Below, one piece after another: positions 2,528 through 21,181 of a stretch of 26,088 bases of DNA (the first letter of the stretch is position 1; each line of letters begins with the position of its first letter). The position numbers were made by a program, and so were the translations under genes. Source of the stretch: a virus (lineage: Duplodnaviria > Caudoviricetes); the IMG/VR virus record IMGVR_UViG_3300037851_000206, positions 1-26,088 of that record; one strand, 5' to 3'. The notes under the pieces are model-generated. The model made no database searches. It had not been told where the DNA came from and was given only the letters and a program-made list of their open reading frames with translations.

Positions 2528-3507
2528 GTGAGCAACAAGGCGCTCCCGCTGATTGAGCTGGCCATTGAACAGGCTGCTGAGCTGTCTACGAGAGCGTTCT
2601 GCCCGACCGGACCTGGAGGCGGGCGGGACAACTCTTGCTCTCCCAACGGCGGCAAGTCAACTCCAGACTTTGGCAGCATGACGAGTAAGGACATCGTCGC
2701 ACACTTGCAGAAGTCGCTTGCGAAGCTGACCAAGGCAAGAGCTGATCTGCAAGCGGTTCGGGATCAGGTGAGGGAGAAAATTGCAGCTCGTGTTGAGGCA
2801 GGGGAGGACTACGACGACGTCACTGACGAGATGATAGAGGAGGAGATGGAGGCGACGATGCCCCTCTATGATGTAATAGAGGAAGCGAATGAGTCCATCA
2901 TGAAGGTGCTAACGCTTCCAGATCACAGGCAGTCTGGGATCCGTATTGCGCCGGGGTCTAATCTCAGCACTGATCAGAAAGAATTCGTCACTCAGTACGC
3001 CAAGCATGTAGACAAACTGTTGGATCGTGACGTACTCGCCTCAGCCAACACGGGACGTCCTAACATGGTTCCGGTTCGCATGGAGAAGGGTGTACGGGCC
3101 AATCACGACGGACGGGGCATCGTTCTCGGTAAGCTCAACTCCGATGATTTTTTCATGAGCTGGGTCATCATCTTGAGCTATCTGAGGGAGCACAGGACGC
3201 CGCTACTTCGTTTTTGAATGATCGCGCCAACTTCGGACAGCTTGAGCCTATCCCAGGTCACAAGGGCGAAATGGCATACATCGCTCGTCAAGGAGCGAAA
3301 GAGCTGCCGTCGTATGCCAGGAAATACTACTCGGGAGGGGAGACGGAGATCGTTTCCATGGGAGTTGAGCAGCTCATGAACGACCCGCATCACTTTCTGA
3401 CGAAGGACCCGGAATGGTTTGGGTTCACGGTCGGTATTATGAGGGGCGAGCACCTGAGCGGTGCTGAGAGGGAACGTGCAAGTCGTGCTCTGGATGGAGG
3501 AATCTGA
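2528..3507 (+). CDS. Tagged cargo protein: leader + Cys/Gly tag + zincin-like metallopeptidase, split by a -1 frameshift at about 3148-3154
   Basis: GTG start at 2528 and tag at 2597-2644. Frame 0 ends at 3217. The -1 frame reads HELGHHLE from 3154 and is continuous with ORF 3214-3507 (YARKYY...TEIVSMGVE...DPEWFGF). Confidence 0.75.
3148..3154 (+). promoter_or_regulatory. Candidate -1 slippery heptamer T_TTT_TTC (alternatively a homopolymer indel)
   Basis: An X_XXY_YYZ heptamer in the correct phase. A -1 shift gives DDFF-HELGHH. Confidence 0.45.
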
Positions 3508-3508
3508 C

Positions 3509-3754
3509 ATGCTGACGGTTCGCATACACGATCTTGACTACCACTGCGACGAGCAGGAGAAGTGGCACGGTCCGCGCAAGAACGTCTTATGGGCTCTGCA
3601 ATGGGCTCTTGACGATGCAAGGCGTCACGTATCTGCTGGCAGCGATGCGTACCCGGAACGAACGCAACTAGAAGCCGCTCGGAGTAGGTACCCGTCGCTG
3701 GAACTGATCACAATGGCTCCACCGCCCCGCCATGTACCAGGAGTGGTATACTGA
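3509..3754 (+). CDS. Small hypothetical protein downstream of the peptidase cargo (candidate partner/immunity protein)
   Basis: GGAGG RBS at 3496-3500 and ATG immediately after the upstream stop. The function is inferred from position only. Confidence 0.6.
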   Translation: MLTVRIHDLDYHCDEQEKWHGPRKNVLWALQWALDDARRHVSAGSDAYPERTQLEAARSRYPSLELITMAPPPRHVPGVVY

Positions 3755-4092
3755 TGAGGATCACAACGGACTCCATCGATCGGTTCTTGCAGTGCCTAGA
3801 CGATGCCCGTCACATCTGGTGTGATACGGTGAGGCTCAACATCGGCGAACGCCCGCTGGACGCTCAGAAGGATTGCGTCCGCTTCGAGATCGTGGTGCAA
3901 GCGTCCGCCATTGTGCGAGTCAGTGACGAGGAGAGCTACTTGCTTGAGGGCGGGGAGATCTGCGGCGTCGACTACCGCGACGCGACCCAGGAGACTACAG
4001 GCAGCGTCAAGGCGGCTGAGCTAGAGGAGCGAGTGCGGACTGCGGCTGCGGCAAGGGGTTGGAAGGTGCTGCCGGGTCTTATCGAGCTCTGA
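3754..4092 (+). CDS. Hypothetical protein
   Basis: TGATG coupling to the upstream gene; 112 aa. Confidence 0.65.
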   Translation: MRITTDSIDRFLQCLDDARHIWCDTVRLNIGERPLDAQKDCVRFEIVVQASAIVRVSDEESYLLEGGEICGVDYRDATQETTGSVKAAELEERVRTAAAARGWKVLPGLIEL

Positions 4093-4157
4093 TTCGGGTC
4101 AGCCGTATTCTGTAGACTCGTGCTACAATCTCGCAACCCGTATTCAGGAGACACTAC

Positions 4158-4496
4158 ATGGCCGTTCTAAGCTCGCACAATCCAGGCGTTCTGCACCACT
4201 TGCCCATCTCGACCGCTGCGAGCGGGGACACGACGATTCTCGCCGCTGTCACGGGCAAGCGCCTTCTGCTGTTGTCCTATGCCCTGGTGGCAAGTGGAGC
4301 GGTGGCCGTCAAGTTCAAGAGTGGCTCGACTGACTTGTCTGGAGCGATGGCACTGGCTGCCAATGGGTCGCTGACGGGCAGTCTCAACAAGTACGGCCAT
4401 GTCGCCACCGCTGCTGGACAGGCGCTGATCCTGAATCTCGGGACTGGTGTGCAAGTGAGTGGTCACGCTACAGTTCTTGAAGTGACAGAGGTCTAA
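4158..4496 (+). CDS. Hypothetical protein, possibly a small beta-rich virion protein
   Basis: AGGAG RBS; Ala/Gly/Ser/Thr-rich, 112 aa. Confidence 0.65.
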   Translation: MAVLSSHNPGVLHHLPISTAASGDTTILAAVTGKRLLLLSYALVASGAVAVKFKSGSTDLSGAMALAANGSLTGSLNKYGHVATAAGQALILNLGTGVQVSGHATVLEVTEV

Positions 4497-4534
4497 GTTC
4501 ACGGGCTGGCGATTATTCCAGGTCGCCTTGATTC

Positions 4535-4906
4535 ATGTCCATCCTTGACAATTTCCCTCACCGATGCCGTATCGAGCGTGTGTCACGTCAGCCTGACAGC
4601 ATGGGTGGGAATCGGGATGTGCCCATTGTGGTGGCCGAGGACGTGCCTTGCTGGTTGCAACAGGCAGGGGCTACGGAGCTGAAGCTCTTCGAGCAGCGGG
4701 GCATGACGCTGTCGTACAAGATCTTCTTCTTGACCGATCCCGGGGTCACTGCTCAGCACCAGATTGTCCTGACGTGGTACCAGGATCAAGAAGCCGAGTT
4801 CAACCCGGGCACCGTACTGTCCGCGACCAAGCCTGACGCCACTGCTGGTTTGGGTAAACTGTGGAAGGTGATGGTTGGCGAGCAGACACCGGAGTTCGTA
4901 GGATGA
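4535..4906 (+). CDS. Putative head-closure/head-tail joining protein (SPP1 gp16-like)
   Basis: The pattern HRCRIERVSRQPDSMGG...VAEDVPCWLQ...YKIFF and the size (123 aa) fit this family. Confidence 0.65.
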   Translation: MSILDNFPHRCRIERVSRQPDSMGGNRDVPIVVAEDVPCWLQQAGATELKLFEQRGMTLSYKIFFLTDPGVTAQHQIVLTWYQDQEAEFNPGTVLSATKPDATAGLGKLWKVMVGEQTPEFVG

Positions 4907-5322
4907 CCAAGAACCTTGAATCGCAGCTCCAGACCGCAATCGATCTGGCTTCCCAGCTCTCGAAAGGTTTCTGTGCGACCGGACAGGGCGGGGGTATCGA
5001 CAACTCATGCGGGCGTGAAGGTGGCGGGGATGCGAAAGTAGGCGCCGCCAAGGACAAGTACGTTGCAGGCGAGCCCCCGGCGGAAGGTATGCTCGCACCC
5101 AAGCCCCCTACCGTCAAGCTCCCAAAGTCAAAGGCACGGCTCAACATTGACGAGTCGAATGCGGCGTTGAAGCAGATGGGCTACACCGTCAAGAGCAAGA
5201 CAGCGCCGGACAGCTCAGGAAAGTGGAGCACGACCCATACACTGACTGATGCCAAGGACGCATCCGTAGCGATGTCTTCCAAGGGGCTCAAGAGTTTCAT
5301 CTACGCCAACCAGAAGAAGTAA
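4903..5322 (+). CDS. Tagged cargo protein: leader + tag + small basic domain of unknown function
   Basis: ATGA overlap at 4903; MTKNLESQLQTAIDLASQLSK-GFCATGQGGGIDNSC. Confidence 0.8.
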   Translation: MTKNLESQLQTAIDLASQLSKGFCATGQGGGIDNSCGREGGGDAKVGAAKDKYVAGEPPAEGMLAPKPPTVKLPKSKARLNIDESNAALKQMGYTVKSKTAPDSSGKWSTTHTLTDAKDASVAMSSKGLKSFIYANQKK

Positions 5323-5362
5323 GCTGGAGGCAGAGGGACGGTCTAAGAAGAACAGGAAGAAC

Positions 5363-5776
5363 ATGCGACCTTTCAAACGGCTTGTGGAGTGGATTGAGCA
5401 ACGTAGGTATCGGAGATCACTTGTCGGACGTCTGACGGACCTTCAACGCAAGCTCGTTCGCCTTGAATACGAACGACTTCGTGTGGAGGCAGAGGTTCAG
5501 CTACAGAAGACGGAGACTGAAGAGCAGCGCGTGCGGTACGATCGTGCCATGCAACGCCTTCAGGACTCTCTTGAGAAGAGTGAGTTGTTTGTCAAGAGAC
5601 AAAAGGAGGCGATCGACGCGCTAAATGATCAGCTCCAGACAGCAACGGAGCTGACCATTCCAACGCTCGTCGCCGCACATCAATTGGTCCTGAATCGGTT
5701 CGAGCACGAGTCGCAGATACTGGCAATGCGAAACGGTGCTATGGTGGCAGCAAGCCAGGGTAACAACGAAGGGTGA
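5363..5776 (+). CDS. Coiled-coil hypothetical protein
   Basis: AGGAAG RBS; heptad-rich L/E/Q/R sequence. Confidence 0.7.
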   Translation: MRPFKRLVEWIEQRRYRRSLVGRLTDLQRKLVRLEYERLRVEAEVQLQKTETEEQRVRYDRAMQRLQDSLEKSELFVKRQKEAIDALNDQLQTATELTIPTLVAAHQLVLNRFEHESQILAMRNGAMVAASQGNNEG

Positions 5777-5785
5777 TGACAAACC

Positions 5786-6286
5786 ATGAGACGCAAGCAA
5801 ACGATCAAGCTGATAGACACTGCGATTGAGCAAGCCGAACGTCTGTCAAAGGTGTTCTGTCCTACTGGACAGGGTGGCGGGGTGGATCCGACGTGCTCGC
5901 CTGGTGGTGGGCGGTCTGGTGATGGCGGGGGCAGTGGTGGGGATGTTTTTGCTCATGAGCGTGGCGGTAGAGAAGAATTGTACGATGGTCCAAACGTCAC
6001 TCCGACTCTATCCACATATCTGGCAGAGGGTCACGGAGCCTTCTCTATGGAGGATGTAGCAGAAGCTCAAGGGAGTGCCCAGAGCTGGTTGGATCGGGCG
6101 ATAGAGGAAATGCCGCCCCGAACTGATTCTGAGATTGATCAGTTCGAATCTGATATGTCTGCAACTGTTGACAACTGGGTGGAGAACGAGGGATACAACG
6201 AGGATGTGACGGAAGACGCCAAAGACATCTTTTACGAGGTTTTATCCGGAAATCTTCAACGACTTCGACAAGACAAAAAACGCTGA
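5786..6286 (+). CDS. Tagged cargo protein: leader + tag + acidic helical domain of unknown function
   Basis: KQTIKLIDTAIEQAERLSK-VFCPTGQGGGVDPTCSP followed by a D/E-rich region. Confidence 0.8.
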   Translation: MRRKQTIKLIDTAIEQAERLSKVFCPTGQGGGVDPTCSPGGGRSGDGGGSGGDVFAHERGGREELYDGPNVTPTLSTYLAEGHGAFSMEDVAEAQGSAQSWLDRAIEEMPPRTDSEIDQFESDMSATVDNWVENEGYNEDVTEDAKDIFYEVLSGNLQRLRQDKKR

Positions 6287-6303
6287 TCGTATGTCCATCC
6301 CGT

Positions 6304-6366
6304 AAGCTGCCAAAGAAAACTGAGTGGGGTGTCCTTGTGAGCAGACGTGTCGTAGAACTGATCGAC
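6304..6366 (+). repeat. Imperfect direct repeat of about 63 bp; second copy at 8547-8610
   Basis: aagctgccaaagaaaactgagtggggtgtccttgtgagcagacgtgtcgtagaactgatcgac versus aagccgccaaagaaaaactgagtgaggtgtccttgtgagcagacgtgttgtagagctgattgat. Confidence 0.9.
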
Positions 6367-6417
6367 GACAGCCCACCAAGCAAGCCCGGACGTCAGCCGC
6401 CACGCAAGAGAAACTGA
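6337..6417 (+). pseudogene. Remnant cargo gene, 26 aa (MSRRVVELIDDSPPSKPGRQPPRKRN)
   Basis: The first 10 aa are identical to the 8581 leader, and the end resembles the KKPPKKN tail of 8118-8567. Tag and cargo are missing. Confidence 0.65.
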
Positions 6418-6428
6418 AGGAGGCACCC

Positions 6429-8114
6429 GTGCCGTCAGCGATCACAAAGGCTCTGTCACGCGGACAGGCCATCTACGACGTAGCCCATCACACCGGTCTC
6501 TCTATGAAGAAACCGGACATCTCCCGCATCCTGATGCCGTTCGATGCCGCGTCGCCTTTCACCCAGCTCGCCGACCAGGCCGCCAACACCCGCCGTTATC
6601 AACTCTACCGCGGTTGGGTGTACGCCGCAGTGAATGCCCTTGCGGCCGAGGCAGCGGGGCAGCCTGTGACGCTCGGACGTGTGTCCAGCAAGTCCAAGAA
6701 GGGCAAGCCGAGAAGCGAGAAGGGGTACGTCAAGGTCCCTTCGTTCTACAGGACGAAGCAAGCAGACGACGAAGTCGAGATCATCTACGAGCACCCGCTA
6801 CTAGATGCACTGGAGCCGCCCAACCCTATTCAAGGCCTCTGGCAGTACGTCTACTCCTACGTCGCCAACCTATGCCTCACTGGCTGGTCGTTCATTGTGA
6901 TCGATGACCAGGGCAAGGACGGTCGCGACTACTACTCAATCCCAACCACATGGATACGCCCGGACCACAGCGAAGGAGCGTTCTCCAAGTTCCGCATCAT
7001 CAATCCGCAGAACCCAGCATCGGAGCTGAACGGGGAACCGTTGGACAGGTCGCAGGTCATGTTCGCGACGCTGCCAAACCCAGCTGACCCGATGGGTGCT
7101 CTATCCCCTTCCACAGCAACCTCGCAAGCGATTTCCATTGACGACCAAATCCAGACGTCGCAGGCGGCCTTTTTCGAGAACGGAATCTTTCCGTCAGTGA
7201 TCGTCACAATGGGTTCTAACCCGCACCCCGACGTACCAGCAGGCATTCGCCCACGACTGACATCGGAGCAGCGGCGGCAAGTGTACGGGGCCATCAAGAA
7301 GGTGAGCAGCGGTGTAGCGAACTACGGCAATCCAGCCATCATTGACGGCATGATCGAGAAGATTGAGCGTCTGTCCGCTTCGCAGAATGAGATGGGCTGG
7401 GAGAAGAGCGAGAAGGCAGTCCGCACTCGCATCCTGTCAGCATACGGAGTCCATCCGTTCATCCTTGGTGAGGAGATGCCGGGTTCGTATGCCCAGGCCA
7501 ACATTGTTGAGGGTCGCTTCTACAAGAAGGTAAACACCTACTTGAAGATGCTGAGCGACTTGCACACCGCCCACGCAAGGCAGCATGACGACGATTCCAT
7601 TCTGATGTGGTGGGAGCCGTGTAAGGCAGTGGATCCGGGCATGGAGCGGAGTGCATGGGAGTCGGCCAGGAACAGAGGGGACGTCCGCCAGAACGAGTAT
7701 CGAGCCGAGGTGATGGGACTGCCACCAGATCCAGATGAGACAGAAGAGCTCATTGACAAAGGCATGACGAAGGACGTGCTCGCTGTCGCTCAGGGCGTCC
7801 GTGCGGGCACGATTGAGAAGGAACAGGGTGTCGCCATTCTGGTCGGAATTGGGATGCCGGAGAAGATGGCACGAAAGATCGCAGGGGAGGCAGCACCGCC
7901 ACCGCCGGCCCCGCCAGCCGTTGCGCCGGGCATACCAGGCGCGCCCGTTGCGGGTGCCGTTGCTCCTCAGGCAGCAACGAACGAGCCTACAGGCGACGAT
8001 ATGCAACAGGCAGTCAAGACGCTTGATCGACTGATCGGAATCTGCGAACTGGATCCAGATGACGAGGTTGATCGTATTATGAGGAAGTCCTCAGTACATG
8101 CACAGGAGAAGTGA
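6429..8114 (+). CDS. Phage portal protein (HK97 family)
   Basis: AGGAGG RBS then GTG at 6429. Motifs WVYAAVNALA, HPLLDALEPPNP, FFENGIFPSVIV, ILSAYGVHPFILG and NEYRAEVMGLPP, with a Pro/Ala-rich tail. Confidence 0.9.
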   Translation: MPSAITKALSRGQAIYDVAHHTGLSMKKPDISRILMPFDAASPFTQLADQAANTRRYQLYRGWVYAAVNALAAEAAGQPVTLGRVSSKSKKGKPRSEKGYVKVPSFYRTKQADDEVEIIYEHPLLDALEPPNPIQGLWQYVYSYVANLCLTGWSFIVIDDQGKDGRDYYSIPTTWIRPDHSEGAFSKFRIINPQNPASELNGEPLDRSQVMFATLPNPADPMGALSPSTATSQAISIDDQIQTSQAAFFENGIFPSVIVTMGSNPHPDVPAGIRPRLTSEQRRQVYGAIKKVSSGVANYGNPAIIDGMIEKIERLSASQNEMGWEKSEKAVRTRILSAYGVHPFILGEEMPGSYAQANIVEGRFYKKVNTYLKMLSDLHTAHARQHDDDSILMWWEPCKAVDPGMERSAWESARNRGDVRQNEYRAEVMGLPPDPDETEELIDKGMTKDVLAVAQGVRAGTIEKEQGVAILVGIGMPEKMARKIAGEAAPPPPAPPAVAPGIPGAPVAGAVAPQAATNEPTGDDMQQAVKTLDRLIGICELDPDDEVDRIMRKSSVHAQEK

Positions 8115-8117
8115 GCG

Positions 8118-8567
8118 ATGAGCAAGCAAACCATCAAGCTGATTGACACCGCCATTGAGCAAGCCCATCGCCTGTCGAAGGTGTTCTGTCCTACTGGCCA
8201 AGGCGGCGGTCGGGATCCAACGTGCTCGCCAGGCGGCGGGAGGGGTGACGGTGGCGGCAATCCTATGGTGACTTCGACGGGCGACGAGATAAAGGTTGGT
8301 CATACTTACTTGGACACTGAAACAGGTGACGAGTTTACAGTGGAAGAGTTTCATGTTCTTGTTCGTTATGAGCCTGTCACAACTCCGTTTCCAGAAAAGG
8401 TAGAGAAGCCTATTGTCATAGGTACCATACCGGGATGGAAAGGTCAAAGGTGGAGGTACCCGCACAAACTAGGTCCGCTTGTGAGTAAGCCAGCCAAGCC
8501 GCCGAAGGCACCCAAGCCAGCCAAACCATCAAAGCCAGCCAAGAAGAAGCCGCCAAAGAAAAACTGA
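8118..8567 (+). CDS. Tagged cargo protein: leader + tag + small beta domain + Lys/Pro-rich tail
   Basis: Leader and tag are nearly identical to those of the 5786 gene. It ends KPAKPPKAPKPAKPSKPAKKKPPKKN. Confidence 0.8.
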   Translation: MSKQTIKLIDTAIEQAHRLSKVFCPTGQGGGRDPTCSPGGGRGDGGGNPMVTSTGDEIKVGHTYLDTETGDEFTVEEFHVLVRYEPVTTPFPEKVEKPIVIGTIPGWKGQRWRYPHKLGPLVSKPAKPPKAPKPAKPSKPAKKKPPKKN

Positions 8568-8580
8568 GTGAGGTGTCCTT

Positions 8581-9420
8581 GTGAGCAGACGTGTTGTAGA
8601 GCTGATTGATACTGCCATTGAGCAAGCCCTTGGGCTGGCCAAGGCTTTCTGCCCGACGGGTCCAGGTGGCGGCGTGGACAATTCATGCTCACCGAAGGGC
8701 GGAGGTAAGGGTGGCGACGATGCGTTTGCCAGTTCCAGGTTGTTCACTGAAGACGAGATCAAGGGCGGGGACACCTCCCAGCCCGCCGAGACCAAAGAGG
8801 ACATCTACAAACTCGCACGCGCAGCCCGCCCTGACTTCGTTGCGATCTTGGACACCGGAGAGGGCGTTGACAAGACCATCGGAGCGAACGCTGCTCACGT
8901 TGATACTGCCGAAGGATTCGCCGAGGCGATTCAGACCAAGGGGCACACTGTCATCATCGGAGGACTCAAGTCAGAGAAGCGAGCGACGGAGAAAGTTGAG
9001 GGCAAGTACGAGGGCGACTGGTCCAGACTCAAGGACGTCGTACGAGCGACCGTCGCTGTGGATTCCAAGGAAGACATTCCGAAAGCGGTGGGGGCTATTC
9101 GCAGTCACATGGAAGCGAAGGGGTACGAGCTGGTGGAAGTGGACAACCGCATGGAACATCCCAACGCGGCGGGCTATCGCGACATCAACACCGTATGGCG
9201 GTCGCCTGACGGCTTCTGCACGGAGCTTCAGATCAACACCAAGGCCATGATTCGTGCCAAAGAGATCGGCGAAGGCCATAAAATGTTTGAGCGGGCAAGG
9301 CACATCGCAGAGACGCCTGGTCGCGAGAAGCGACAGGCGACAACTGAGGAACGTGCAGAGCTCGACGATCTCAATGCACGAATGAGAGTTCTCTACGGAA
9401 AGGCATGGGACGAAGGATGA
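8581..9420 (+). CDS. Tagged cargo protein: RelA/SpoT-like nucleotidyltransferase (small alarmone synthetase-like)
   Basis: LKSEKRATEK, LKDVVRAT, GYRDIN, ELQINT and GHKMFE match the order of RelA/SpoT synthetase motifs. Confidence 0.85.
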   Translation: MSRRVVELIDTAIEQALGLAKAFCPTGPGGGVDNSCSPKGGGKGGDDAFASSRLFTEDEIKGGDTSQPAETKEDIYKLARAARPDFVAILDTGEGVDKTIGANAAHVDTAEGFAEAIQTKGHTVIIGGLKSEKRATEKVEGKYEGDWSRLKDVVRATVAVDSKEDIPKAVGAIRSHMEAKGYELVEVDNRMEHPNAAGYRDINTVWRSPDGFCTELQINTKAMIRAKEIGEGHKMFERARHIAETPGREKRQATTEERAELDDLNARMRVLYGKAWDEG

Positions 9421-9617
9421 AGTATGTCTGGCATGACGGTGTGATCGTTCGGCAAGCGGACCCGTTCGCCCAGGCCGAGATCTACGGACCGAAGGCGAAG
9501 AAGTGGTTCCCGTTCCCGGAGTCGAAGGACAGCCGCCATTCCGCGTTCGCTGCCATGCACGAAGGGACGCCGCTGACTGAGAAGCAGGTCAAGGATAAAA
9601 TCGCGGAGCTTTCTTGA
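9417..9617 (+). CDS. Small hypothetical protein coupled to the RelA/SpoT-like gene (candidate antitoxin)
   Basis: ATGA overlap upstream and TGATG overlap downstream; 66 aa. Confidence 0.65.
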   Translation: MKYVWHDGVIVRQADPFAQAEIYGPKAKKWFPFPESKDSRHSAFAAMHEGTPLTEKQVKDKIAELS

Positions 9618-12600
9618 TGTCTTCGCTCACCACCAGAGCTTTCTGCCCGACGGGCCCGGGCGGGGGCGTAGACAACTCCTGTCCTCCCAAGCATGGAGGC
9701 GGGAATGCAGACGCGGCGCAGGCTGCAAAGGACGAGGCCAAGCGCAAGGTCCGCGAGCTCACGAAGGATCTGACTCGTGAGGAGATGCTGAACGCGGTTG
9801 CGAAGGCAGAGAACACACCGGAGAAGCTCTTTGACCTGTCGCAGCCCGGAACCAAGTTCGTCAACATTGGCGAGCTCAATCCGATCCGAGCACGGGAGAA
9901 GGGCATCGACACTGCCACCCGCATCATGTACGCGGGTGGCACCGACCAGTCGCCCATGCCTCCTCGCGTTCCCATCAGCGTCAAGAAGACTGGGCCGACG
10001 TACGAGATCCAAGACGGGAATAGCACCTACGCCGTACTGAAGGCGGCTGGGTGGGAGCGGGTTCCGGTCGTGGACGTGGACCTGCAAACGAAGTCAGCAA
10101 TGTTGACCCTCGTAAAAGCCGGGCAGACACTTGCCAAGATGCGAATCCGTCACACCGCACGTCGCAAGGTGCGGGAGGTCAGCGGGAAGGTTCATCTGCG
10201 CCAGTACGACGCAACGGTAGTGAAGCTCGAGGGCGTGTTGCACCCGTTCTTCCTTGCACAGGCCAAGGATGTCAGCGATCGCCTGTTGCGACTGGAGCGG
10301 GGCTCCGATGTGATTGGTGAGAAGGCATGGTGTCCAACGGGACCTGGCGGGGGCAAGGACAATTCATGTTCGCCCAACGGGGGCAAGTCCATCCCTTCGG
10401 TGACGCTTCCAGACGAGGTGGATAAGAACCTCGAGTCGTTTGGTTTGTCGGGTCCATTGGGCGGAATCTGGAAGCAAGTTCTGGAGAGCAATGGAGTCGA
10501 CCCAGCCGCTATTCAGGAGATGGAGCAGCTTTTCGACAGCCACCGTCATGGTGACGGGATCCAGGAGAGGGCAGATAAAGAGATTGCCGATGCTCTGCAC
10601 ACAGACACGCCACTTGGCAACGCGCTTCGCACTCAGGTGGCAGTGGAAACGGCGGTCCTTGCCAAGTACGAGAAGCTCCGACCCGTACTTGCTGATAGGC
10701 AAGATGCTCGATCCAAGGCTGACATGAAGGAGGCTTGGGAGCATGGGTACGCGCCAAAGAACGACGATGCCTATGGGTCGTGGGAAGAGCAGTGGGAGGT
10801 AGAAGAGAAACACGAGACGAGGGAGTTGCGGGAGCCCATGCGGTTCTACCGTAAGGGCAGCCTCGACAAGGATGTAGTGGCAACGTCTACCAATTCTTCT
10901 GGAGCAAGAAGCCATGCCGTCATTGGCGACCCATCTAGTCAGCCACACTTCAAGCCAACAGGTTCTTGGACAAGTGCAGAACTGAAGGCTGAAGGATACA
11001 TGGTTCTTGGAGGAGTCGGTTTCAAAGGAATGGGCTACTCCGGAGAGAACGAGGTGACGTGGATTCGCGTTCGCGAAAGTAGCGTCACGAACACTAAGTC
11101 CGCATCTCGCACGAAGGCACAGCAGACCCACAGCAACACGGATGCTGAGGCACTGGCCCACTCCGTCTACGACCCGCGTGAGTGGGATGCGTTGCTGGTC
11201 GAGACGCTGATGGTGCCGTATGCAGAGGCGTACCTGGAGGCCGCTTCTGCTGAGGTGGAGCTTGCGAAGATGGCAGCGGACATCAAGCAGGTCAGTATCG
11301 CGGGCTCCAAGATGGTGCAAGCGTACGAGCAGTGGAAGGCCTTCAACCCTAATCAGCCACGCGACGAGGCCGGACGTTTCGCATCCACTGGCTCAGGAGG
11401 GATGGGTAGGGTAGAGCGGGGTGCGGACACACCGGACAAGAAGGCACTGGTGGATCAGCTCGCTGTGATGCGGGACATGATCGAGAAGAACTTCAAGCAA
11501 GAGGGGTGGAAACACGGGTCGATCCAAGGCATGGTGATAGAGGAGGGGCAGTGGGACAACCCACAGCCGCTACCCAAAGGCGTCCGCCGTGGCACCATGA
11601 AGCAATGTTTCCAGAACGCCTACCAGCTCGCAACGCGAGACTCTGAGTACACCTACGTCGAAGGCTATGCCATGACGAAGGGTATTCCGCTGGCCATCGA
11701 ACATGCTTGGGTCGTTGACAAGGCTGGCAACGTGGTTGACAACACTTGGGACACGCCAGGCACAGCGTACCTTGGCATCCACTTCGACACGTCGTTCGTG
11801 GAGCAGCAAGCCGCCAAGACGGGTGTGTATGGGGTGCTGGGCGGCTACCACATGGAAGCCACGCGGGAGCTACTGGAGAACGGGCTGCCAAGTGGAGCGA
11901 GGACCAAGTCGGCGGGCATGTTCATCCGCACCAAGGCGTCCACCGCTGCAAGGTGGATCGGTGCGAAAGTGCTCAAGTACGATGAGATGACAGTTCGAAC
12001 GAGTGCTGGTGAGTTCAGTTTCAAGATCTCAACCGAGTATCCGAAGTGGATGAAGCGTCGTCTCAAGGAACTGCTCGAAGAGACGTTCTCGCAAGACTAC
12101 TGGCAGGACATCAACGACACGACCTCATCCGACATCACTTCTGTTCTGCAACGGGGCCTCAAGGATGGGTGGTCCATCACGGACATCGCACAAGAGATCG
12201 TTGACAGCCTTCCTGGCGGGCAGGGGGACACGTTGTCGCGAGCCACTGCAATCGCTCGGACGGAGGCAGGGCACGCGCTCAACGGTGCAAGGTCCGCTGC
12301 GATAGACGACCTTGCTGAGGAGATGCTGCCGTACGGACTCCCGATCAAGAAGACGTGGATGTCCGTACTCGGAACAACCACGCGGGAGACTCATGCAGAC
12401 GCTGACGGGGTGCCAGCCGACCAGCGTGGCATGTGGTCCATCGGCGGGTACGATTGCCGCTGGCCTGGGGACGTGATGCTGCCCGCCCATGAGCGGATCA
12501 ATTGTTTCCCTGGATCGGTTTTAGTCTCTGGTGATTTCACAGGGGCGCAGATGGGCAGGTACGATGGCATTGTCGCCAAAATCATACTCAGCACGGGGGT

Positions 12601-14596
12601 GGTTCTTACCGTCACTCCACATCACCCAATAATGACCTCTAAGGGATGGGTTAGTGCAGGCTGTCTCCAGAAGGGTGATAAGGTGGCGTGCTATCGGACC
12701 GATTCTAATCTCGCTCTTGGGAAGGCCGCCGGGGTACCTACGAGTGGGATCTGGAAATACGGCGGCGAAGATGTAGATTACAAACCAGTCTCGATCGAGC
12801 AGGTATCGAAGGCGATCTTTTCCGCGGGTGCTACCTCTGGGGTGATTGAAATCCTGCGAGCTGAGATGAACGATTTCTATGGCGATGGAGTGTTCTTTGA
12901 TGCAGAGGTCCAAGTTGTAAGGGCCGACTGGAAACTGCTGATCGACCGCATAATCGAGGGACCGAAGAAAATCGGTGACTTTGTTTTCACTCTGGTAGAT
13001 CCCCAGTCTTCTGGTGTACCTTGTTTGAGCTCGTCGTACATTAGACTCGACAGAGTTCCCGTTGCTGCGCCGGGTCTCCCAAGCCTTGCCAAGCCATTTC
13101 TCTGTATCCCCATCAGCAGCATCTCTCCATCTGGATCGCTGGCCCTCGGAATAGCCCCGGATAGACACACCGCGTTCCTTGAGATAGGAGGTGATGCGAT
13201 TTCGGGTTATCCCGTATCTCTTCGACAGTCGTTGCAGAGGGATACCGTTGGTGTACTCGGAGAGGAGAGTATCGGCTATTTCAGGAGGGATCTCCAGTCG
13301 TCTAGAGCTGTTCCATCCACATCGTTTGATCACAATGCCGCGGCTCTCGATTCTGCTTTTGATGGTGGCGGGATCGCAGTGGTAGACTCTGGAAATGGAG
13401 AGCATCGATTCCCCTCTGAGGTATCGTTTGCAGATGTCGTCAGTGTCGAGGAGTTTCCGTTTCATGGTGTGGTATACGATCTCCAAGGTGTGAATGGATT
13501 GATTGTAGCGAGGGACCCCGAATCAGCAAGCATTGGCATAGGTGTGATTGCTTCGAATTGCCAGTGTACCATTCTATCTGAGTACGGGATGACAGATTCC
13601 GAGGCAGGAGAGCTGCTCAGCGATTACAGAGCCCGAGTCGAAGAACGCGAGCAGTTCTACCGATCGCAAGGCAAGTCGTACACAGACGACAAGAGCTGCG
13701 GTGCTGGGTCCGCCGGTAGTCCAGGATTCGGAACCGGGAACACCTGCGCCGTTGGTCGCGGTGGGCAGTCTCTGTTAGCTACCAAGAAGCGACGGGACGG
13801 AACGCGAGTCCTTGCAAACGGCAAGCCCCTCCCCGACCACGTCCCAGTCATTCCGCCAGCGTGGGAGGATGTGCATGTCAGCCTTGACAAGAACTCCGAT
13901 CTGGTTGTGAAGGGCAGGGACGCGAAGGGTCGCATCCAGTCCATCTATTCGGAGAAGCATTCGACGCGACAGGCCAAGCTCAAGTTCGCCAAGGTCAAGG
14001 AGCTACGAGCCAAGCAGAAGGCCATCCGCAAAGAAATCGAGAGCGACCTCAAGTCGGACGATCCAGAGGTTCGCGAGTCCGCTGCTGTGGCACGTTTGAT
14101 CCAGGAGACGGGCATCCGCCCGGGCGGGAGCAACGACGGCAAGGCAGCCGTCCAGTCATATGGGGCGACGACGCTTGAGGCACGTCACATCAGCGTCCGC
14201 GATGGAAAGGTCACGCTCAAGTTCGTGGGCAAGAAGGGCGTCAAGCTCTCCATCCCCGTAGAAGACAAAGCCGTTGCCAAGGACCTAATACGACGTAAGG
14301 CCGAGGCCGGTGGACCGCGTCGCCCCATCTTCGACACGACGGACGAAAGGCTTCGGGAGTACGCGGACACGTTGGACGGCGGCAAGTTCAACCCGAAGGA
14401 CTTCCGCACGGCGAAGGGTACGGAGATCGCTGTTGCCATGATCAAGTCCATGCCCGCACCAAAGACGGAGCGTGAGTACAAGGCGTCAGCCAAGGCAGTG
14501 GCCAGAGCGGTTTCCGACCGCCTTGGAAACACCCCGACCGTCGCCCTTCAGTCGTATATTGATCCTGTGGTGTTCTCGAAGTGGAGGATCAAGTGA
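9617..14596 (+). CDS. MuF/SPP1 gp7-family minor head polyprotein with intein. Cargo modules: ParB-like, ART-like, papain-like and C-terminal DNA topoisomerase IB
   Basis: MuF motifs RATAIARTE, KKTWMS..TRETH and PGD..LPAHERIN/CQC. TopIB motifs IPPAW, GRDAKGR.Q..Y, GIRPG, FVGKKG, KDFRT and LGNTPTVALQSYIDP. Confidence 0.9.
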   Translation: MSSLTTRAFCPTGPGGGVDNSCPPKHGGGNADAAQAAKDEAKRKVRELTKDLTREEMLNAVAKAENTPEKLFDLSQPGTKFVNIGELNPIRAREKGIDTATRIMYAGGTDQSPMPPRVPISVKKTGPTYEIQDGNSTYAVLKAAGWERVPVVDVDLQTKSAMLTLVKAGQTLAKMRIRHTARRKVREVSGKVHLRQYDATVVKLEGVLHPFFLAQAKDVSDRLLRLERGSDVIGEKAWCPTGPGGGKDNSCSPNGGKSIPSVTLPDEVDKNLESFGLSGPLGGIWKQVLESNGVDPAAIQEMEQLFDSHRHGDGIQERADKEIADALHTDTPLGNALRTQVAVETAVLAKYEKLRPVLADRQDARSKADMKEAWEHGYAPKNDDAYGSWEEQWEVEEKHETRELREPMRFYRKGSLDKDVVATSTNSSGARSHAVIGDPSSQPHFKPTGSWTSAELKAEGYMVLGGVGFKGMGYSGENEVTWIRVRESSVTNTKSASRTKAQQTHSNTDAEALAHSVYDPREWDALLVETLMVPYAEAYLEAASAEVELAKMAADIKQVSIAGSKMVQAYEQWKAFNPNQPRDEAGRFASTGSGGMGRVERGADTPDKKALVDQLAVMRDMIEKNFKQEGWKHGSIQGMVIEEGQWDNPQPLPKGVRRGTMKQCFQNAYQLATRDSEYTYVEGYAMTKGIPLAIEHAWVVDKAGNVVDNTWDTPGTAYLGIHFDTSFVEQQAAKTGVYGVLGGYHMEATRELLENGLPSGARTKSAGMFIRTKASTAARWIGAKVLKYDEMTVRTSAGEFSFKISTEYPKWMKRRLKELLEETFSQDYWQDINDTTSSDITSVLQRGLKDGWSITDIAQEIVDSLPGGQGDTLSRATAIARTEAGHALNGARSAAIDDLAEEMLPYGLPIKKTWMSVLGTTTRETHADADGVPADQRGMWSIGGYDCRWPGDVMLPAHERINCFPGSVLVSGDFTGAQMGRYDGIVAKIILSTGVVLTVTPHHPIMTSKGWVSAGCLQKGDKVACYRTDSNLALGKAAGVPTSGIWKYGGEDVDYKPVSIEQVSKAIFSAGATSGVIEILRAEMNDFYGDGVFFDAEVQVVRADWKLLIDRIIEGPKKIGDFVFTLVDPQSSGVPCLSSSYIRLDRVPVAAPGLPSLAKPFLCIPISSISPSGSLALGIAPDRHTAFLEIGGDAISGYPVSLRQSLQRDTVGVLGEESIGYFRRDLQSSRAVPSTSFDHNAAALDSAFDGGGIAVVDSGNGEHRFPSEVSFADVVSVEEFPFHGVVYDLQGVNGLIVARDPESASIGIGVIASNCQCTILSEYGMTDSEAGELLSDYRARVEEREQFYRSQGKSYTDDKSCGAGSAGSPGFGTGNTCAVGRGGQSLLATKKRRDGTRVLANGKPLPDHVPVIPPAWEDVHVSLDKNSDLVVKGRDAKGRIQSIYSEKHSTRQAKLKFAKVKELRAKQKAIRKEIESDLKSDDPEVRESAAVARLIQETGIRPGGSNDGKAAVQSYGATTLEARHISVRDGKVTLKFVGKKGVKLSIPVEDKAVAKDLIRRKAEAGGPRRPIFDTTDERLREYADTLDGGKFNPKDFRTAKGTEIAVAMIKSMPAPKTEREYKASAKAVARAVSDRLGNTPTVALQSYIDPVVFSKWRIK
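12503..13558 (+). mobile_element. Intein (352 aa) inserted in the MuF ERIN|CQC motif
   Basis: N-terminal CFPGSVLV, block B LTVTPHHPIMTSKGWV, block F FHGVVYDLQ and terminal ASN followed by Cys(+1). Removal restores the MuF ERINCxC motif. Confidence 0.92.
12521..13465 (-). CDS. Putative homing endonuclease: tandem HTH repeats + Vsr/DUF559-like PD-(D/E)xK nuclease, antisense within the intein
   Basis: Two HTH-like repeats (YLRGESMLSISRVYHCDPATIKSRI; YTNGIPLQRLSKRYGITRNRITSYL), then SENKVTDFL...QQFPVGPYNLDLCIKEHSIAIEI...KDRLRYLLDRDWFVIYI. Start at 13465 (ATG) or 13486 (TTG). Confidence 0.8.
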   Translation of the reverse strand: MKRKLLDTDDICKRYLRGESMLSISRVYHCDPATIKSRIESRGIVIKRCGWNSSRRLEIPPEIADTLLSEYTNGIPLQRLSKRYGITRNRITSYLKERGVSIRGYSEGQRSRWRDAADGDTEKWLGKAWETRRSNGNSVESNVRRAQTRYTRRLGIYQSENKVTDFLRSLDYAVDQQFPVGPYNLDLCIKEHSIAIEIVHLSSQDFNHPRGSTRGKDRLRYLLDRDWFVIYIFAAVFPDPTRRYPGGLPKSEIRIGPIARHLITLLETACTNPSLRGHYWVMWSDGKNHPRAEYDFGDNAIVPAHLRPCEITRD

Positions 14597-16176
14597 GTCG
14601 CATTGAAGGCCTTGACGCTGATGTTCACTTTGGCAGTGTGGACGACGAGGACGCTGACTGGCGTTCTGAACTCGTTGATGTGGATCCAGATGACGAGGAG
14701 CTTGCACAGACTCCCGACGACGTGATCGCCATTCTTGGGTTCGACCCACTCGAGGAGTACGGCCCGCGGGCGACAAAGGCGTTCTGTGCGACAGGCGTTG
14801 GTGGGGGTGTGGACAACTCATGCAGTCCAAAGCAAGACGCGGGAGGTGACAAGGACCTTCGCGGAGCGAACTTGCGTGGCAAGGACTTGCGGGGTGTTGA
14901 CCTGGAGTCAGCAGACCTACGCGAGGCGGACTTGAGGGATGCGGATCTACGGGATGCGAATGCGAAGAACGCTGATATGAAGAACGTGGATGCACGGTCA
15001 GCTGACATGACTCGTGCGGACCTTCGCAAAGCGAACTTGGAATCGGCAACTCTCCGCAATGCCTACCTTGATGTGGCGGACCTCAGCGGAGCGAACCTAT
15101 CGGAGGCTGACATGCGGTCTGTGTCTGCCAAGAGTGCCTCGTTCAAGAACGCGGACCTACGGGGTGCTGTGTTGACGGAGGCCAATCTGAGTGGCGCGGA
15201 CCTGCGCAACGCTGATCTACGGGAGGCGAATCTAAGAAGTACCCACATGACGGGTGCTCGTCTTCGCGGAGCGAAACTGGACGGGGCTCTTCTTCAAGGT
15301 GCAGATTTTGGCGGTGCTGATCTCGATCAACGCGAGGTAGAAGCCGCTGCAAGCGGCCATGCCCTCGTGGATGGGAAGGCGTGGTGCCCTACTGGTCCGG
15401 GAGGTGGACGGGACAACTCGTGTTCTCCCAAGCGGGACTCCTCGCAACCTAGTTCTGGGATGCTCGCGAGGGCAAGCGCCGTTTTTCAGGAGCTTGACGG
15501 CGACGGGGAGTTGGGTAATGCGTGTGATGCGCAGATGAGGGGCGGAAAGTTCAACAAACGAGGTACCTTTGAGCCGTTCTCCGAGAAGACGAAGCTCTTG
15601 AACCTCCGCAAGATTCGAAGAGGGCTTGCTGATCTGAAGGACAAGGATTCAGAGGCGTTTGAGCTCGCTAGGCAACTGGGCATCGCGGACAGGTTTGGAG
15701 TAGAGGAGTACGCAGATCTTCCTGACAAAGTGACCGTCTACCGAGGTCATAGTGAACACGAGGAAGCATCCACAGTCAACAACGTCACCACCCGCAAAGA
15801 AGTGGCCGAGAAGTTTGGGGAGACGGGGGTCGTCACCGAGTACGAGATGAGCAAGGACGACATCATCTTCCCTCTGTCTAACAGTGTCTTTGATGAGGGC
15901 GAGATGATCGTCCATACCAAGAGCATGAAGGTCGTGAGTCAAAGACTGTCCGATGCGGTTGTTGAGAACCGTGCCTATCTTGACTTCGTCAAGGACCTCA
16001 GTCATCACGGAAGCAAGGTGGTAGGCATGTTCGAGGGAGCAAAGTCCGTCGGCAAGGTGAAGCATCTTGGAGTCTCCAACACATTGGTCGTTGAGTGGGA
16101 TGTACCTGGACAAGGAACTGTCACTGACTACCTGACGGCATGGCGGGACGTGCAAATTGTGAAAGGCGAGTCATGA
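14593..16176 (+). CDS. Two-tag polyprotein: acidic N-terminus + pentapeptide repeat domain + ADP-ribosyltransferase-like domain
   Basis: GTGA overlap; tags at 14782 and 15382. A(D/N)LxxA repeats at about 14850-15330. VTVYRG..VTT..VAEKF..DEGEMIV at about 15727-15912. Confidence 0.85.
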   Translation: MSRIEGLDADVHFGSVDDEDADWRSELVDVDPDDEELAQTPDDVIAILGFDPLEEYGPRATKAFCATGVGGGVDNSCSPKQDAGGDKDLRGANLRGKDLRGVDLESADLREADLRDADLRDANAKNADMKNVDARSADMTRADLRKANLESATLRNAYLDVADLSGANLSEADMRSVSAKSASFKNADLRGAVLTEANLSGADLRNADLREANLRSTHMTGARLRGAKLDGALLQGADFGGADLDQREVEAAASGHALVDGKAWCPTGPGGGRDNSCSPKRDSSQPSSGMLARASAVFQELDGDGELGNACDAQMRGGKFNKRGTFEPFSEKTKLLNLRKIRRGLADLKDKDSEAFELARQLGIADRFGVEEYADLPDKVTVYRGHSEHEEASTVNNVTTRKEVAEKFGETGVVTEYEMSKDDIIFPLSNSVFDEGEMIVHTKSMKVVSQRLSDAVVENRAYLDFVKDLSHHGSKVVGMFEGAKSVGKVKHLGVSNTLVVEWDVPGQGTVTDYLTAWRDVQIVKGES

Positions 16177-17489
16177 ACATCAGTCAACACGAACCGCCGC
16201 CGGACATCTCCCTCGCTGGATATTCAGTCGTAGCCAGCTACATCGAGGCAGCCAACAGAATCCTCGTTCAGGACCCTTCTGTATCCGAAGTCGAGCTAGA
16301 CAGAAGGGCACGCGCCGTAGCCGCACAGCCGACTAGGAAGAAGAAGGGGGCGTCCGATCGTCTCAAAGCATTCTGCCCCACGGGTCCAGCCACCGATAAC
16401 GACGGCTCATTCGATCCGAAGAACCCAGACATCACGAAGGCATTTTGTCCAACCGGCCCAGGTGGGGGTGTAGACAACTCATGCAGTCCAAAGCGTGGCA
16501 GCAACAATCGGAGACGGGATAGGCATCAACACGTTGACACCAACGGTGACGGGGTGACGGACGCCGCTCGTGTAGGTGTGCCTGCGATGGAGGTGCCCCC
16601 GCCGCCAGGCGTTCCGAAGTTGGACGGACTTGACGAACGTAGTGAGCAGGCTCAGCAGGCATTCATAGACCACTTCGAAGCTGATCCGGATGGGGTGGCA
16701 AGCAAGTTTCGTGAGCTGGTTGTCAAGGCAGGGGGAACTCCTACGTTCGGAACGGACGACGCAAAGGTTCTGGCAGACGTATGGTCCGAGACGGACCCTG
16801 AGCAACGTGCGACCAACCGTGCCACAATGAATCTGGCTCTCCATCAAACCGCTAACGCAATCGCCAAGCGAGCATTCTTGCAGTACCTGGACACGTTGGA
16901 GCCCGGTGCCAATATCCTGGTCACTGCGGGTGGCTGCGGGGCTGGGAAGGGGTTTGCTCTTGGCACTGACAAGGATGGGAACCCCTACGTTCCCAAGGCC
17001 CATGAAATGAAGACCCAAGCCTCCGCCGTGTGGGACTCGGCAGGTGACCAGAACGGTATCGAGAGCCCATGGATTCTTGAGGAGGCTGAAAAGCGAGGGC
17101 TGACAGTTTCGTACGCCTACATTCATGCCGACCCGAAGGTACAATGGGCTGACCCGAACAAGGGCGTGGTCAAACGTGCCAGCAACCCGAAGGACGGGCG
17201 GATGGTAGACGCAAGAGTGTTCGCTGACAGCTATGTGGTCGGAGCTCAGAACCACATGGCGTTCTACGAGGCCAACAAGGACAACCCAGCCGCGTCGTTC
17301 GTCTTCATTGACAACCGCAACGGTCCCAAGGAGGTCCCTACCATTCCGGAGGAGGCACTGAGTCTGTCTGCTGATGAGCTGGTAGAGTTTGCAGAGCAGG
17401 CAGTGGCAAGCCCTGACGTTCCACCCCGCGTTCGCGAAGGTGCTACTCAAGGGCGTCGTGTGTGGGAGGCAGCAGATGACGACGATTGA
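16173..17489 (+). CDS. Tagged cargo protein: zeta-toxin-like P-loop kinase
   Basis: ATGA overlap. Walker A ILVTAGGCGAGKG at about 16929, plus VWDSAG, YAYIHADP, RASNPKDGRMV and FVFIDN. Confidence 0.75.
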   Translation: MNISQHEPPPDISLAGYSVVASYIEAANRILVQDPSVSEVELDRRARAVAAQPTRKKKGASDRLKAFCPTGPATDNDGSFDPKNPDITKAFCPTGPGGGVDNSCSPKRGSNNRRRDRHQHVDTNGDGVTDAARVGVPAMEVPPPPGVPKLDGLDERSEQAQQAFIDHFEADPDGVASKFRELVVKAGGTPTFGTDDAKVLADVWSETDPEQRATNRATMNLALHQTANAIAKRAFLQYLDTLEPGANILVTAGGCGAGKGFALGTDKDGNPYVPKAHEMKTQASAVWDSAGDQNGIESPWILEEAEKRGLTVSYAYIHADPKVQWADPNKGVVKRASNPKDGRMVDARVFADSYVVGAQNHMAFYEANKDNPAASFVFIDNRNGPKEVPTIPEEALSLSADELVEFAEQAVASPDVPPRVREGATQGRRVWEAADDDD

Positions 17490-19071
17490 GCAGTGGTGGG
17501 AAGAGGACGCAGAGAGGTTGAACAAGCTCGCGGAGGCTGCTCGTCCATTCGCTGCAAAGGTGCTGCCAGATGACGACAAGCCAACAGACGCCAAGGCCTG
17601 GTGTCCAACAGGCCCAGGTGGCGGGCGGGACAACTCCTGCTCGCCCAAGCGCAACGCCGTTGGTGACGTGTCTGTTCCTACGGAAGATGAGGCACGGGCG
17701 AACTACGAAGCCCTCTACGAACGCGCAAGAAAGCAAGAGGCCCAGAGAGAGGTTGTAGCCTCCCAGTGGTCTTCAATGAGGTTCGAGTTGGAGAAGGACA
17801 GACTCGAGCTCGAGAAGTTGCGGAACGTCTACCCGCGGACCCCAGAACTCGAAGAACGAATAAACGCCGCTGCGGAGGCACTAGACGACAAGGAGTTGAC
17901 GTATGCACAGCTCTCCCGTCAGGTTCAAACAATGGATCGGGAAGAGCAGTTGGTTCTACACGAGATGACTCGCGAGAAGATGCAGCTCCAAGCCGCCAAC
18001 CCGGAGGAGTACCGTGCGGCTATGCTGGAGGACCTGGAAGGGATGAAAGCGACTCACGGCAAGCTCGCGGAGCTTGAGAAGCTGGCAGACGAATCTGGAT
18101 ACGTTGGTCTTTACAATAGTCAGATTGGCAAGATGGCTGAAGTCGTCAGATCCTTTGCCACTCTCGAAGATGCTTTGGAGACTCATCCTGCTCTTCAAAG
18201 CCACCCGGAACTTGCGAAAGCGATGTTCGAGTACAAAGGCCCAGCGAACATGCGGCCAGACAACTCAAAATGGCTGCCACCATACTACGGGGACCCTCAC
18301 ACAGTCGGGGACACTCGTGCTGAGATGTCGTCAAGCAAAGTGTCCAAGCTGGTAGCAGGCAGAGTCAAGGAGCAGGGCGGGGCGAGTGAGGACGTCAAAT
18401 CCTTCACTGAGCAATGTGGGATCTATGCTCAGATGAGTTCCGGTGGAGTGGCCCAGATACTGATGAGCGAAGACGGTCGTGTCAAGAACGGATTCTTCAG
18501 GGATACGCCTGGTTCCGTAGGAGATGGCAGGCCGACGTACTGGCCCATTCGTAAAGGCGCAGAGAAGCGGATGTTCGACATCCCGCTTTCAGCAAGACCC
18601 GATCAGCGTCCAGTGTATGGGTACCTTGAACATCCACACCGTTCGCGTAGTGTTTCCCAGAAACACAAGCAATATGGCGACGTTCAGGTCGTTTTCAAGC
18701 CTGCTGTGAAGGCTCGCACCACGATGACTGTAGGAGACTCGCTGGATGACGAAGGTCTTCATGGAGCAAAGGCAGTGGCAGTCAACGACCCAGGGGGAAG
18801 CATTCTCTCTGACGGGTACACAGTGTCAGCCGCTCCTGTTGCATCTGATTGGAAGGTTGGGTATGCAAGCGATCCGGAAGCAGAAGGATGGACGCCACGA
18901 TACATCGAGGCTCAGATGCACGGCAAAGTGAGCAGAGGCGACATCCAAGAGATTAGAGCTGCGAAAGGTACATTGTCTTCATACGCCCGCGAAGCGGCGG
19001 CAAAACACGGCATCCCGATAGTTGACCTGCCGCCTCCGCACATTCTCTACTCGTATGCTCGAGGTTGGTGA
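17476..19071 (+). CDS. Tagged cargo protein: coiled coil + DUF3626-like (ART-like) domain
   Basis: GGGAGG RBS and ATG at 17476. Motifs RPVYGYL, QYGDVQVVFKP..KARTTMTVGDSL and YIEAQMHGKV..DI. Confidence 0.75.
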   Translation: MTTIEQWWEEDAERLNKLAEAARPFAAKVLPDDDKPTDAKAWCPTGPGGGRDNSCSPKRNAVGDVSVPTEDEARANYEALYERARKQEAQREVVASQWSSMRFELEKDRLELEKLRNVYPRTPELEERINAAAEALDDKELTYAQLSRQVQTMDREEQLVLHEMTREKMQLQAANPEEYRAAMLEDLEGMKATHGKLAELEKLADESGYVGLYNSQIGKMAEVVRSFATLEDALETHPALQSHPELAKAMFEYKGPANMRPDNSKWLPPYYGDPHTVGDTRAEMSSSKVSKLVAGRVKEQGGASEDVKSFTEQCGIYAQMSSGGVAQILMSEDGRVKNGFFRDTPGSVGDGRPTYWPIRKGAEKRMFDIPLSARPDQRPVYGYLEHPHRSRSVSQKHKQYGDVQVVFKPAVKARTTMTVGDSLDDEGLHGAKAVAVNDPGGSILSDGYTVSAAPVASDWKVGYASDPEAEGWTPRYIEAQMHGKVSRGDIQEIRAAKGTLSSYAREAAAKHGIPIVDLPPPHILYSYARGW

Positions 19072-21112: not shown

Positions 21113-21181
21113 TTTCAAGTCGAGTTCGGTATATTGGTTCTAGGTAGTTTCACTTCAGCACCCAAGCAAGGAGAACAGAAG

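Follow-up and report, generated by a model that had tools for sequence, protein, structure and literature searches.

We analysed a stretch of 26,088 nucleotides from a tailed phage (Duplodnaviria; Caudoviricetes; IMG/VR record IMGVR_UViG_3300037851_000206, positions 1 to 26,088), hereafter the window, which represents a phage head region and in which all coordinates count from window position 1. A Cys/Gly peptide of the form [F/W]C[P/A]TGxGGGxD[N/P][S/T]C, hereafter the tag, recurs there in front of unrelated domains. The motif directly before every tag, which an earlier note on this DNA had missed, looks like a prohead-protease site, and we consider it probable that the peptide is an N-terminal handle that is unmasked by the prohead protease and holds the freed cargo for exit with the genome. 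Judged from sequence, cleavage by this protease before the tag at P1, the residue three before the first tag Cys, is very likely, and a role of the tag in retention or ejection of the freed cargo is slightly favoured.

The earlier note had described 11 full copies of the tag, and all 11 were recovered on the plus strand and in frame in 9 open reading frames (ORFs), with 11 residues between the two Cys as it had noted. A six-frame scan of the window with looser patterns included gave no match beyond these full copies, and no tag match arose when 5,653 residues were shuffled 2,000 times; a truncated 12th copy lies at 16368. When the copies are compared in pairs at the eight invariant columns, the third codon position differs in 269 of 440 cases and the first and second positions in none of 880, and because the copies diverge synonymously at these columns, selection acts on the peptide, which upholds the claim of the earlier note. 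The tag is Gly-rich, its conservation reaches P15', the distance between P1 and the first Cys is identical in every copy, and the second Cys is retained in 237 of 238 pattern-selected tags. An AlphaFold model from the tag alignment gave a low-confidence hairpin (pLDDT 61, pTM 0.19). A disulfide or metal site is possible, though Cys-free peptides occupy the same slots. Four tag segments matched no Pfam or NCBIfam family at E ≤ 1 and the tag matched no PDB sequence at E ≤ 10, both searches having low power with such short queries; tblastn against cultured phages gave no match either, with power reduced by the low-complexity filter.

To describe the residues before the tag, P1 and P3 (two residues further upstream) were compared between phages. 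A DNA-pattern scan covering 30 of the 64 parts of IMG/VR found at least 179 loci, with 238 tags in 106 contigs. P1 is K in 9/11 window copies and R in the other two, and among the 238 tags it is R (102), N (95), E (12), K (12), L (9), Y (5) or F (3). When 167 non-redundant tags in 59 clusters were used, P1 agreed in 381 of 390 within-cluster pairs (shuffle mean 0.37, maximum 0.51) and P3 in 221 of 390 (0.15 when shuffled), while agreement at positions -10 to -6 was at chance level. The profile search proposed in the earlier note was made with 115 tags and, among 1.84 billion cluster representatives, had 1,500 hits with E ≤ 0.001; in the best 150 matched proteins (481 tags), which overlap partly with the IMG/VR set, P1 agreed in 612 of 641 pairs versus 0.61 when shuffled. 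P1 is thus genome-specific (K, R, N, E, L or F/Y), and the tag is found in at least five head lineages. Met at P1 was absent from the 238 tags and from the 481 tags, a DNA pattern with Met there had no match in IMG/VR, and leaders as short as four residues still retain the P1 site. The common anatomy is a carrier, the P3-x-P1 motif, the tag, a Gly-Ser linker and the cargo. In one contig (L304:2-4431), sister tags, which are unrelated peptides at equivalent positions, have Ala at P1, suggesting another protease class. A scan of GTDB for the tag gave six loci, four in short contigs of metagenome-assembled genomes with phage-like context and two chance-like.

The identity of P1 follows the protease of the phage. 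Among 50 of the 106 contigs, picked for length and P1 diversity, Peptidase_S78 was detected in 4 of 5 K records and 14 of 15 R records (18/20) and in none of the 30 others, and DUF2213 in 10 of 20 N records and none of the 30 others; one further K lineage has an XkdF-type protease with a Mu-type portal. The motif before the tags resembles the sites of the SPN3US protease gp245, for which cuts behind P3-x-P1, with a small residue at P1', have been measured (PMC10052503). The major capsid protein gives a second comparison. By alignment, its predicted maturation junction has K in the window and in four K records and R in the R records; K also stands there in 9/9 relatives that a capsid search, not a tag search, had retrieved. 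In the N, E and Y classes the junction residue, placed by eye, equals the tag P1, and an L-class scaffold repeats LxL followed by S. The portal family also differs by P1 class, being PF04860 in K and R, PF06381 in N, PF06074 in F/Y and L, and PF05136 in E, so that one Cys tag type occurs alongside four portal families. Neither the capsid junction nor the MuF-core boundary carries a tag. Co-folding of the protease domain with leader and tag (score 0.02) was uninformative in either direction. K-type proteases have a Cys-rich stretch, K followed by C..CGC, past the catalytic domain (window 23629 onward; L218:9135-11453), and in one K-type protease another type of Cys/Gly tag lies close to the C-terminus.

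The tagged units belong to head modules, in line with the linkage proposed in the earlier note. In the 28 records with a detected protease, 88 of 88 tags share the strand of the protease gene at a distance of no more than 13 kb, and in records of at least 50 kb this holds for 47 of 47 tags versus 16.6 expected. One stand-alone tagged gene in the near-whole genomes lies away from the head module; such a gene in record G010 (L242:6756-7349) has His as its P1 residue. Tags are repeated inside portal, MuF and protease chains, with up to 10 per chain; among 30 scanned tagged relatives, 17 have MuF (14) or portal (3), five have only an ART-like match, and eight gave no match. The window MuF polyprotein (9617..14596, plus strand) combines MuF in one chain with effector domains, namely topoisomerase IB and three further units. 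Its segments are R and tag (9641) with a ParB-like domain; K and tag (10328) with an ART-like domain; K and a sister tag of type D (xFNPxQPRDxxGRF, 11339..11380, plus strand) with an enzyme of no assigned family; the MuF core with an intein (12503-13558); and K and a sister tag of type B (CGxG..GFxxGNxC, 13694..13747, plus strand) with topoisomerase IB (types B and D are names coined in this analysis). Cargo is inserted between structural segments, and all five sites of the form TK followed by S or A lie at untagged cargo-to-MuF junctions. The intein, on the plus strand, is open throughout, and a 321-residue ORF lies inside it on the opposite strand (12521-13486, minus strand); the latter has a restriction-endonuclease-like match (PF18741) below the cut-off and is possibly a homing endonuclease.

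The stand-alone units have carriers of their own. Five window genes share an amphipathic helical leader ending in K or R, and a profile built from four of the window leaders retrieved only the five. The portal C-terminal helix (8004) resembles these leaders, and with the portal C-terminal helices of three relatives as anchors, the window leaders ranked 7, 10, 19, 24 and 31 of 7,698 windows; because the anchors were picked by hand, this likeness is only suggestive. An ILGFDP motif stands in an acidic leader upstream of tags, in a K-type phage (window 14581-14780) as well as in an N-type phage (L226:16608-18098). MuF was considered as an obligatory partner of the tag and rejected: a search with 10 MuF domains as the profile detected it in eight further records but not in five tag-bearing ones (G020, fetched as 31 kb, G022, G024, G027 and G007). 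Among 1,390 ORFs of 23 records, no non-cargo gene common to all P1 lineages was found.

The tag is one of several peptides that fill the same slot. Orthologous MuF slots hold different tag types (window, G001, G003, G004 and G005), Cys-free peptides fill slots that the Cys tag holds elsewhere, and the relatives found through the capsid have peptides of the GGPGSGNFGH, HLPGxHDQ or FNPxHD type after K. Each genome favours one tag type, and many sister tags have Cys or His near the predicted new N-terminus. The cargo is also exchanged: topoisomerase IB occurs behind four tag types, the P-loop cargo of the window is 56-63% identical to tagged cargo of R- and N-type phages, with P1 in each relative matching the phage's own protease, and other cargo types are likewise shared behind differing tag types. 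Cultured relatives of the capsid or the P-loop cargo were sought and none was found. One relative (L312) has portal and MuF without any cargo, and the system is therefore accessory.

Sister tag D also occurs directly after Met1, in SPP1-like phages and in gp14 of the Mycobacterium phage Predator; the 10 stretches surveyed include one internal match and one whose start is doubtful. One such SPP1-like gene, lying between portal and MuF, carries ART cargo. Removal of Met in these genes would yield the same N-terminus as the cut predicted for the window. Proteases of the S78, DUF2213 and XkdF types were not found in the five Met1-tag records, where a DUF2213 control was also silent. Predator gp14 (L294:4998-5759) is annotated as a head maturation protease, yet it is very basic and starts with sister tag D; an orthologue without any Pfam match has a JAB-domain gene and MuF downstream of it.

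Taken together, a handle unmasked by the prohead protease would work as follows. A helical leader, or fusion to portal, MuF or protease, would carry the unit into the prohead; during maturation the prohead protease would cut after K (or R) and expose the tag as a free N-terminus, and cargo looped into MuF would be freed by a second cut after the K of TK[S/A]. The exposed tag would then hold the freed domain at the exit, on the portal or the DNA, so that the domain could leave with the DNA at infection and act on the host at entry, for example by ppGpp-like synthesis, ADP-ribosylation, kinase or topoisomerase activity, or DNA mimicry. More tentatively, the unrelated short peptides (the Cys loop, CG..GFxxGNxC, NPxQPRDxxGRF, GGPGSGNFGH and HLPGxHDQ) may be interchangeable free-N-terminal ejection signals that are independent of head type. 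They would form a portable delivery code, one that we hold to be somewhat less likely than not, activated by the phage's own maturation protease, or at Met1 if there is none.

Several points weigh against the protease-unmasked handle. Its anatomy, linkage and co-variation are observed, and loading, cutting, binding and ejection are steps that we only infer; no partner of the tag was identified. Two of the 11 window tags carry R rather than K, and P1 is mixed within some proteins (H/N; L/A/T; F/L). DUF2213 went undetected in 10 of 20 N records, and the proteases of the E, L and F/Y records come down to one Mu-like match below the cut-off. P1 and protease share ancestry, so that their partition amounts to some six lineages rather than 50 independent events. 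The position of the capsid junctions comes from alignment for K and R and from inspection by eye for N, E and Y. The Met1-tagged stand-alone genes have no leader, therefore the tag may also load there, and a JAB protease gene stands beside the tagged gene in three of five Met1 records, the mycobacteriophage-like ones (seen in the two that were scanned). Finally, a post-cut signal is no universal need, because T4 packages foreign proteins with a leader alone and reportedly also delivers them into the host.

The earlier note had read the tag as an address for loading into the head. Its view of the tag as a mark on exchangeable cargo domains in the head module still stands; its view of the tag as the loading address has been weakened, because tags recur in fusions to portal, MuF and protease, which would presumably enter the head in any case, because stand-alone genes carry a separate helical leader, and because MuF is undetected in five tag-bearing records. 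A loading address would bind scaffold, capsid or portal, and the cut would merely trim the upstream part. The confinement of tags to head modules fits this, as does the sister tag alone at Met1 of the leaderless ART gene between portal and MuF. Yet a single chain fused to portal, MuF or protease can contain up to 10 tags, heads with four portal families use one and the same tag, the stand-alone genes have their own helix, with similar leaders before other tags in relatives, and the Cys tag never directly follows Met1, so we regard this explanation as unlikely. We give slightly less credence to the tag being no more than the prime side of the cleavage site, with a flexible or looped structure that would present the site for efficient cutting between folded domains and would have no later role. 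The fixed spacing from P1 to the first Cys and the Gly-rich composition would suit such an element, and to our knowledge all these prohead proteases may share one fold. However, no tag stands at the capsid junction or at the TK[S/A] exits of MuF, conservation extends to P15', and a sister tag stands at Met1, where no cut is needed.

It is improbable that the target of the tag is a host factor met after injection, with the leader masking the tag in the producing cell (an explanation that covers membrane crossing, localisation, protection from proteases and a metal or redox switch). The Cys tag is always masked by a leader, many sister tags have Cys or His near the new N-terminus, and no non-cargo phage gene is common to all lineages, all of which would agree with a host target. 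Sister tag D, though, stands unmasked at Met1 in a Mycobacterium phage and in SPP1-like phages, and host assignment for the Cys-tag phages gave none. Least credible of all is that the repeat is a mere DNA cassette for recombination that shuffles cargo. Truncated tags and remnants of deleted cargo, here and in relatives, and the one tag type favoured per genome point that way, but the codon comparison (269/440 third positions versus 0/880 first and second positions) largely refutes it as the sole role; recombination may be a by-product.

The remaining units of the window, all on the plus strand, surround the portal and MuF genes. The first (2528..3507) has a helical leader, R and tag (2597) and zincin-like cargo. 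The HExxH motif of the zincin, a label given by the earlier note, is out of frame in the tagged ORF (2528-3217) and present in the -1 frame (3151-3507), to which a T TTT TTC heptamer at 3148-3154 connects it by a -1 shift; this shift is a programmed frameshift, a broken gene or an assembly error. A Logan contig of a possible source run (X1) has identical letters at 3148-3154, and another run (X2) has no coverage there. The -1 frame zincin part has 13 relatives, and the nine that are listed sit 193-729 residues behind a tag. Small cargoes follow K and tag in three genes with leaders: a basic one without family assignment (4903..5322, tag 4969), an acidic one with 29 D/E versus 11 K/R (5786..6286, tag 5855), and one with a Lys/Pro-rich tail (8118..8567, tag 8184). 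The untagged portal (6429..8114, PF04860) has an uncertain start codon. A leader with K and tag (8647) precedes a RelA/SpoT-like domain (8581..9420; PF04607, E 1e-8). Beyond MuF, an acidic leader is followed by K and tag (14782) with a pentapeptide repeat and by K and tag (15382) with an ART-like lead (14581..16176). The next gene (16140..17489) has a leader, the truncated tag, K and tag (16443) and a P-loop (zeta-like) domain, and the last (17476..19071) a leader, K and tag (17599), a coiled coil and a DUF3626-like domain. Truncated tags resembling remnants of deleted cargo lie at window 16368-16440, at the end of L217:2689-4860 and in L220:422-3694, and the stretch joined to the one in the window is presumably akin to the end of an ART-PolyVal domain.

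The cargo labels of the earlier note fared unevenly. RelA_SpoT and pentapeptide pass the Pfam cut-offs, as does topoisomerase IB, and DUF3626 falls below. The zeta-like label keeps its P-loop motif and has no Pfam match, the ParB-like and first ART-like labels come from motifs recognised by eye, and for the second ART-like one there is only an Atlas lead (0.75-0.82). Between the cargo block and the protease lie a DUF932 gene (21134-22201) and several small genes. The prohead protease is of the HK97 type (Peptidase_S78; 22771..23928) with a scaffold-like tail and is the predicted cutter. The untagged major capsid protein (23983..25674), in which the maturation junction would lie between K270 and S271 (24793), gave only chance-level matches against the PDB.

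The T4 gp21-type protease cuts after Glu. The window system is not a member of that type, because its protease is an HK97-type S78 and its P1 is K or R. By gene content and position in the head module, the locus fits the class of polyvalent and MuF-fused effectors. In the available portions of the literature, polyvalent effectors and those fused to MuF, portal or protease are proposed to be packaged and injected (PMC5512222, PMC9503650), with the same carriers (MuF, portal and head peptidase) and similar cargo (ART, zincin, RelA/SpoT, zeta-like kinase and 2H), and assemblin-like peptidases are suggested to process them (PMC5512222). Those portions contain no inter-domain tag or P1 rule, whereas each unit in the window carries a cut-like site and a conserved, swappable peptide. 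In T4, according to the accessible text, a leader alone packages foreign proteins (PMC9024508), and T4 internal proteins and Alt, with their capsid targeting sequence, as well as SPN3US head proteins likewise have a short N-terminal leader, P3-x-P1, a small P1' and ejected cargo (PMC9024508, PMC10052503). In these systems the shared element is removed, while here a conserved 15-residue element would stay after the predicted cut; the tag, unlike that element, recurs within polyproteins and crosses unrelated head types. Phage P1 loads its Dar anti-defence proteins into the head, and the first 30 residues of DarB target a reporter (PMC9024508, PMC12810830), but the Dar N-termini have no consensus according to the authors, as far as the available text goes. 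The earlier note knew of no description of the tag, and none was found by motif or topic in mostly freely readable text without supplements. The Cys/Gly tag is best read as a variant on the T4, P1 and polyvalent theme of head cargo.

For the processing and delivery of multi-domain head proteins, the tag supplies a sequence rule that marks cargo boundaries. It also predicts the specificity of prohead proteases, including cutting after Asn by DUF2213, and gives a search key for anti-defence enzymes in 1,500 protein clusters, with many units of no assigned family. The Mycobacterium phage Predator is in culture, and its sister tag opens part of the model to testing. Should the tag prove to be an ejection signal, phage-based delivery of proteins to bacteria would gain a compact tool, and if the peptides form a delivery code, any protein behind such a tag would exit with the DNA.

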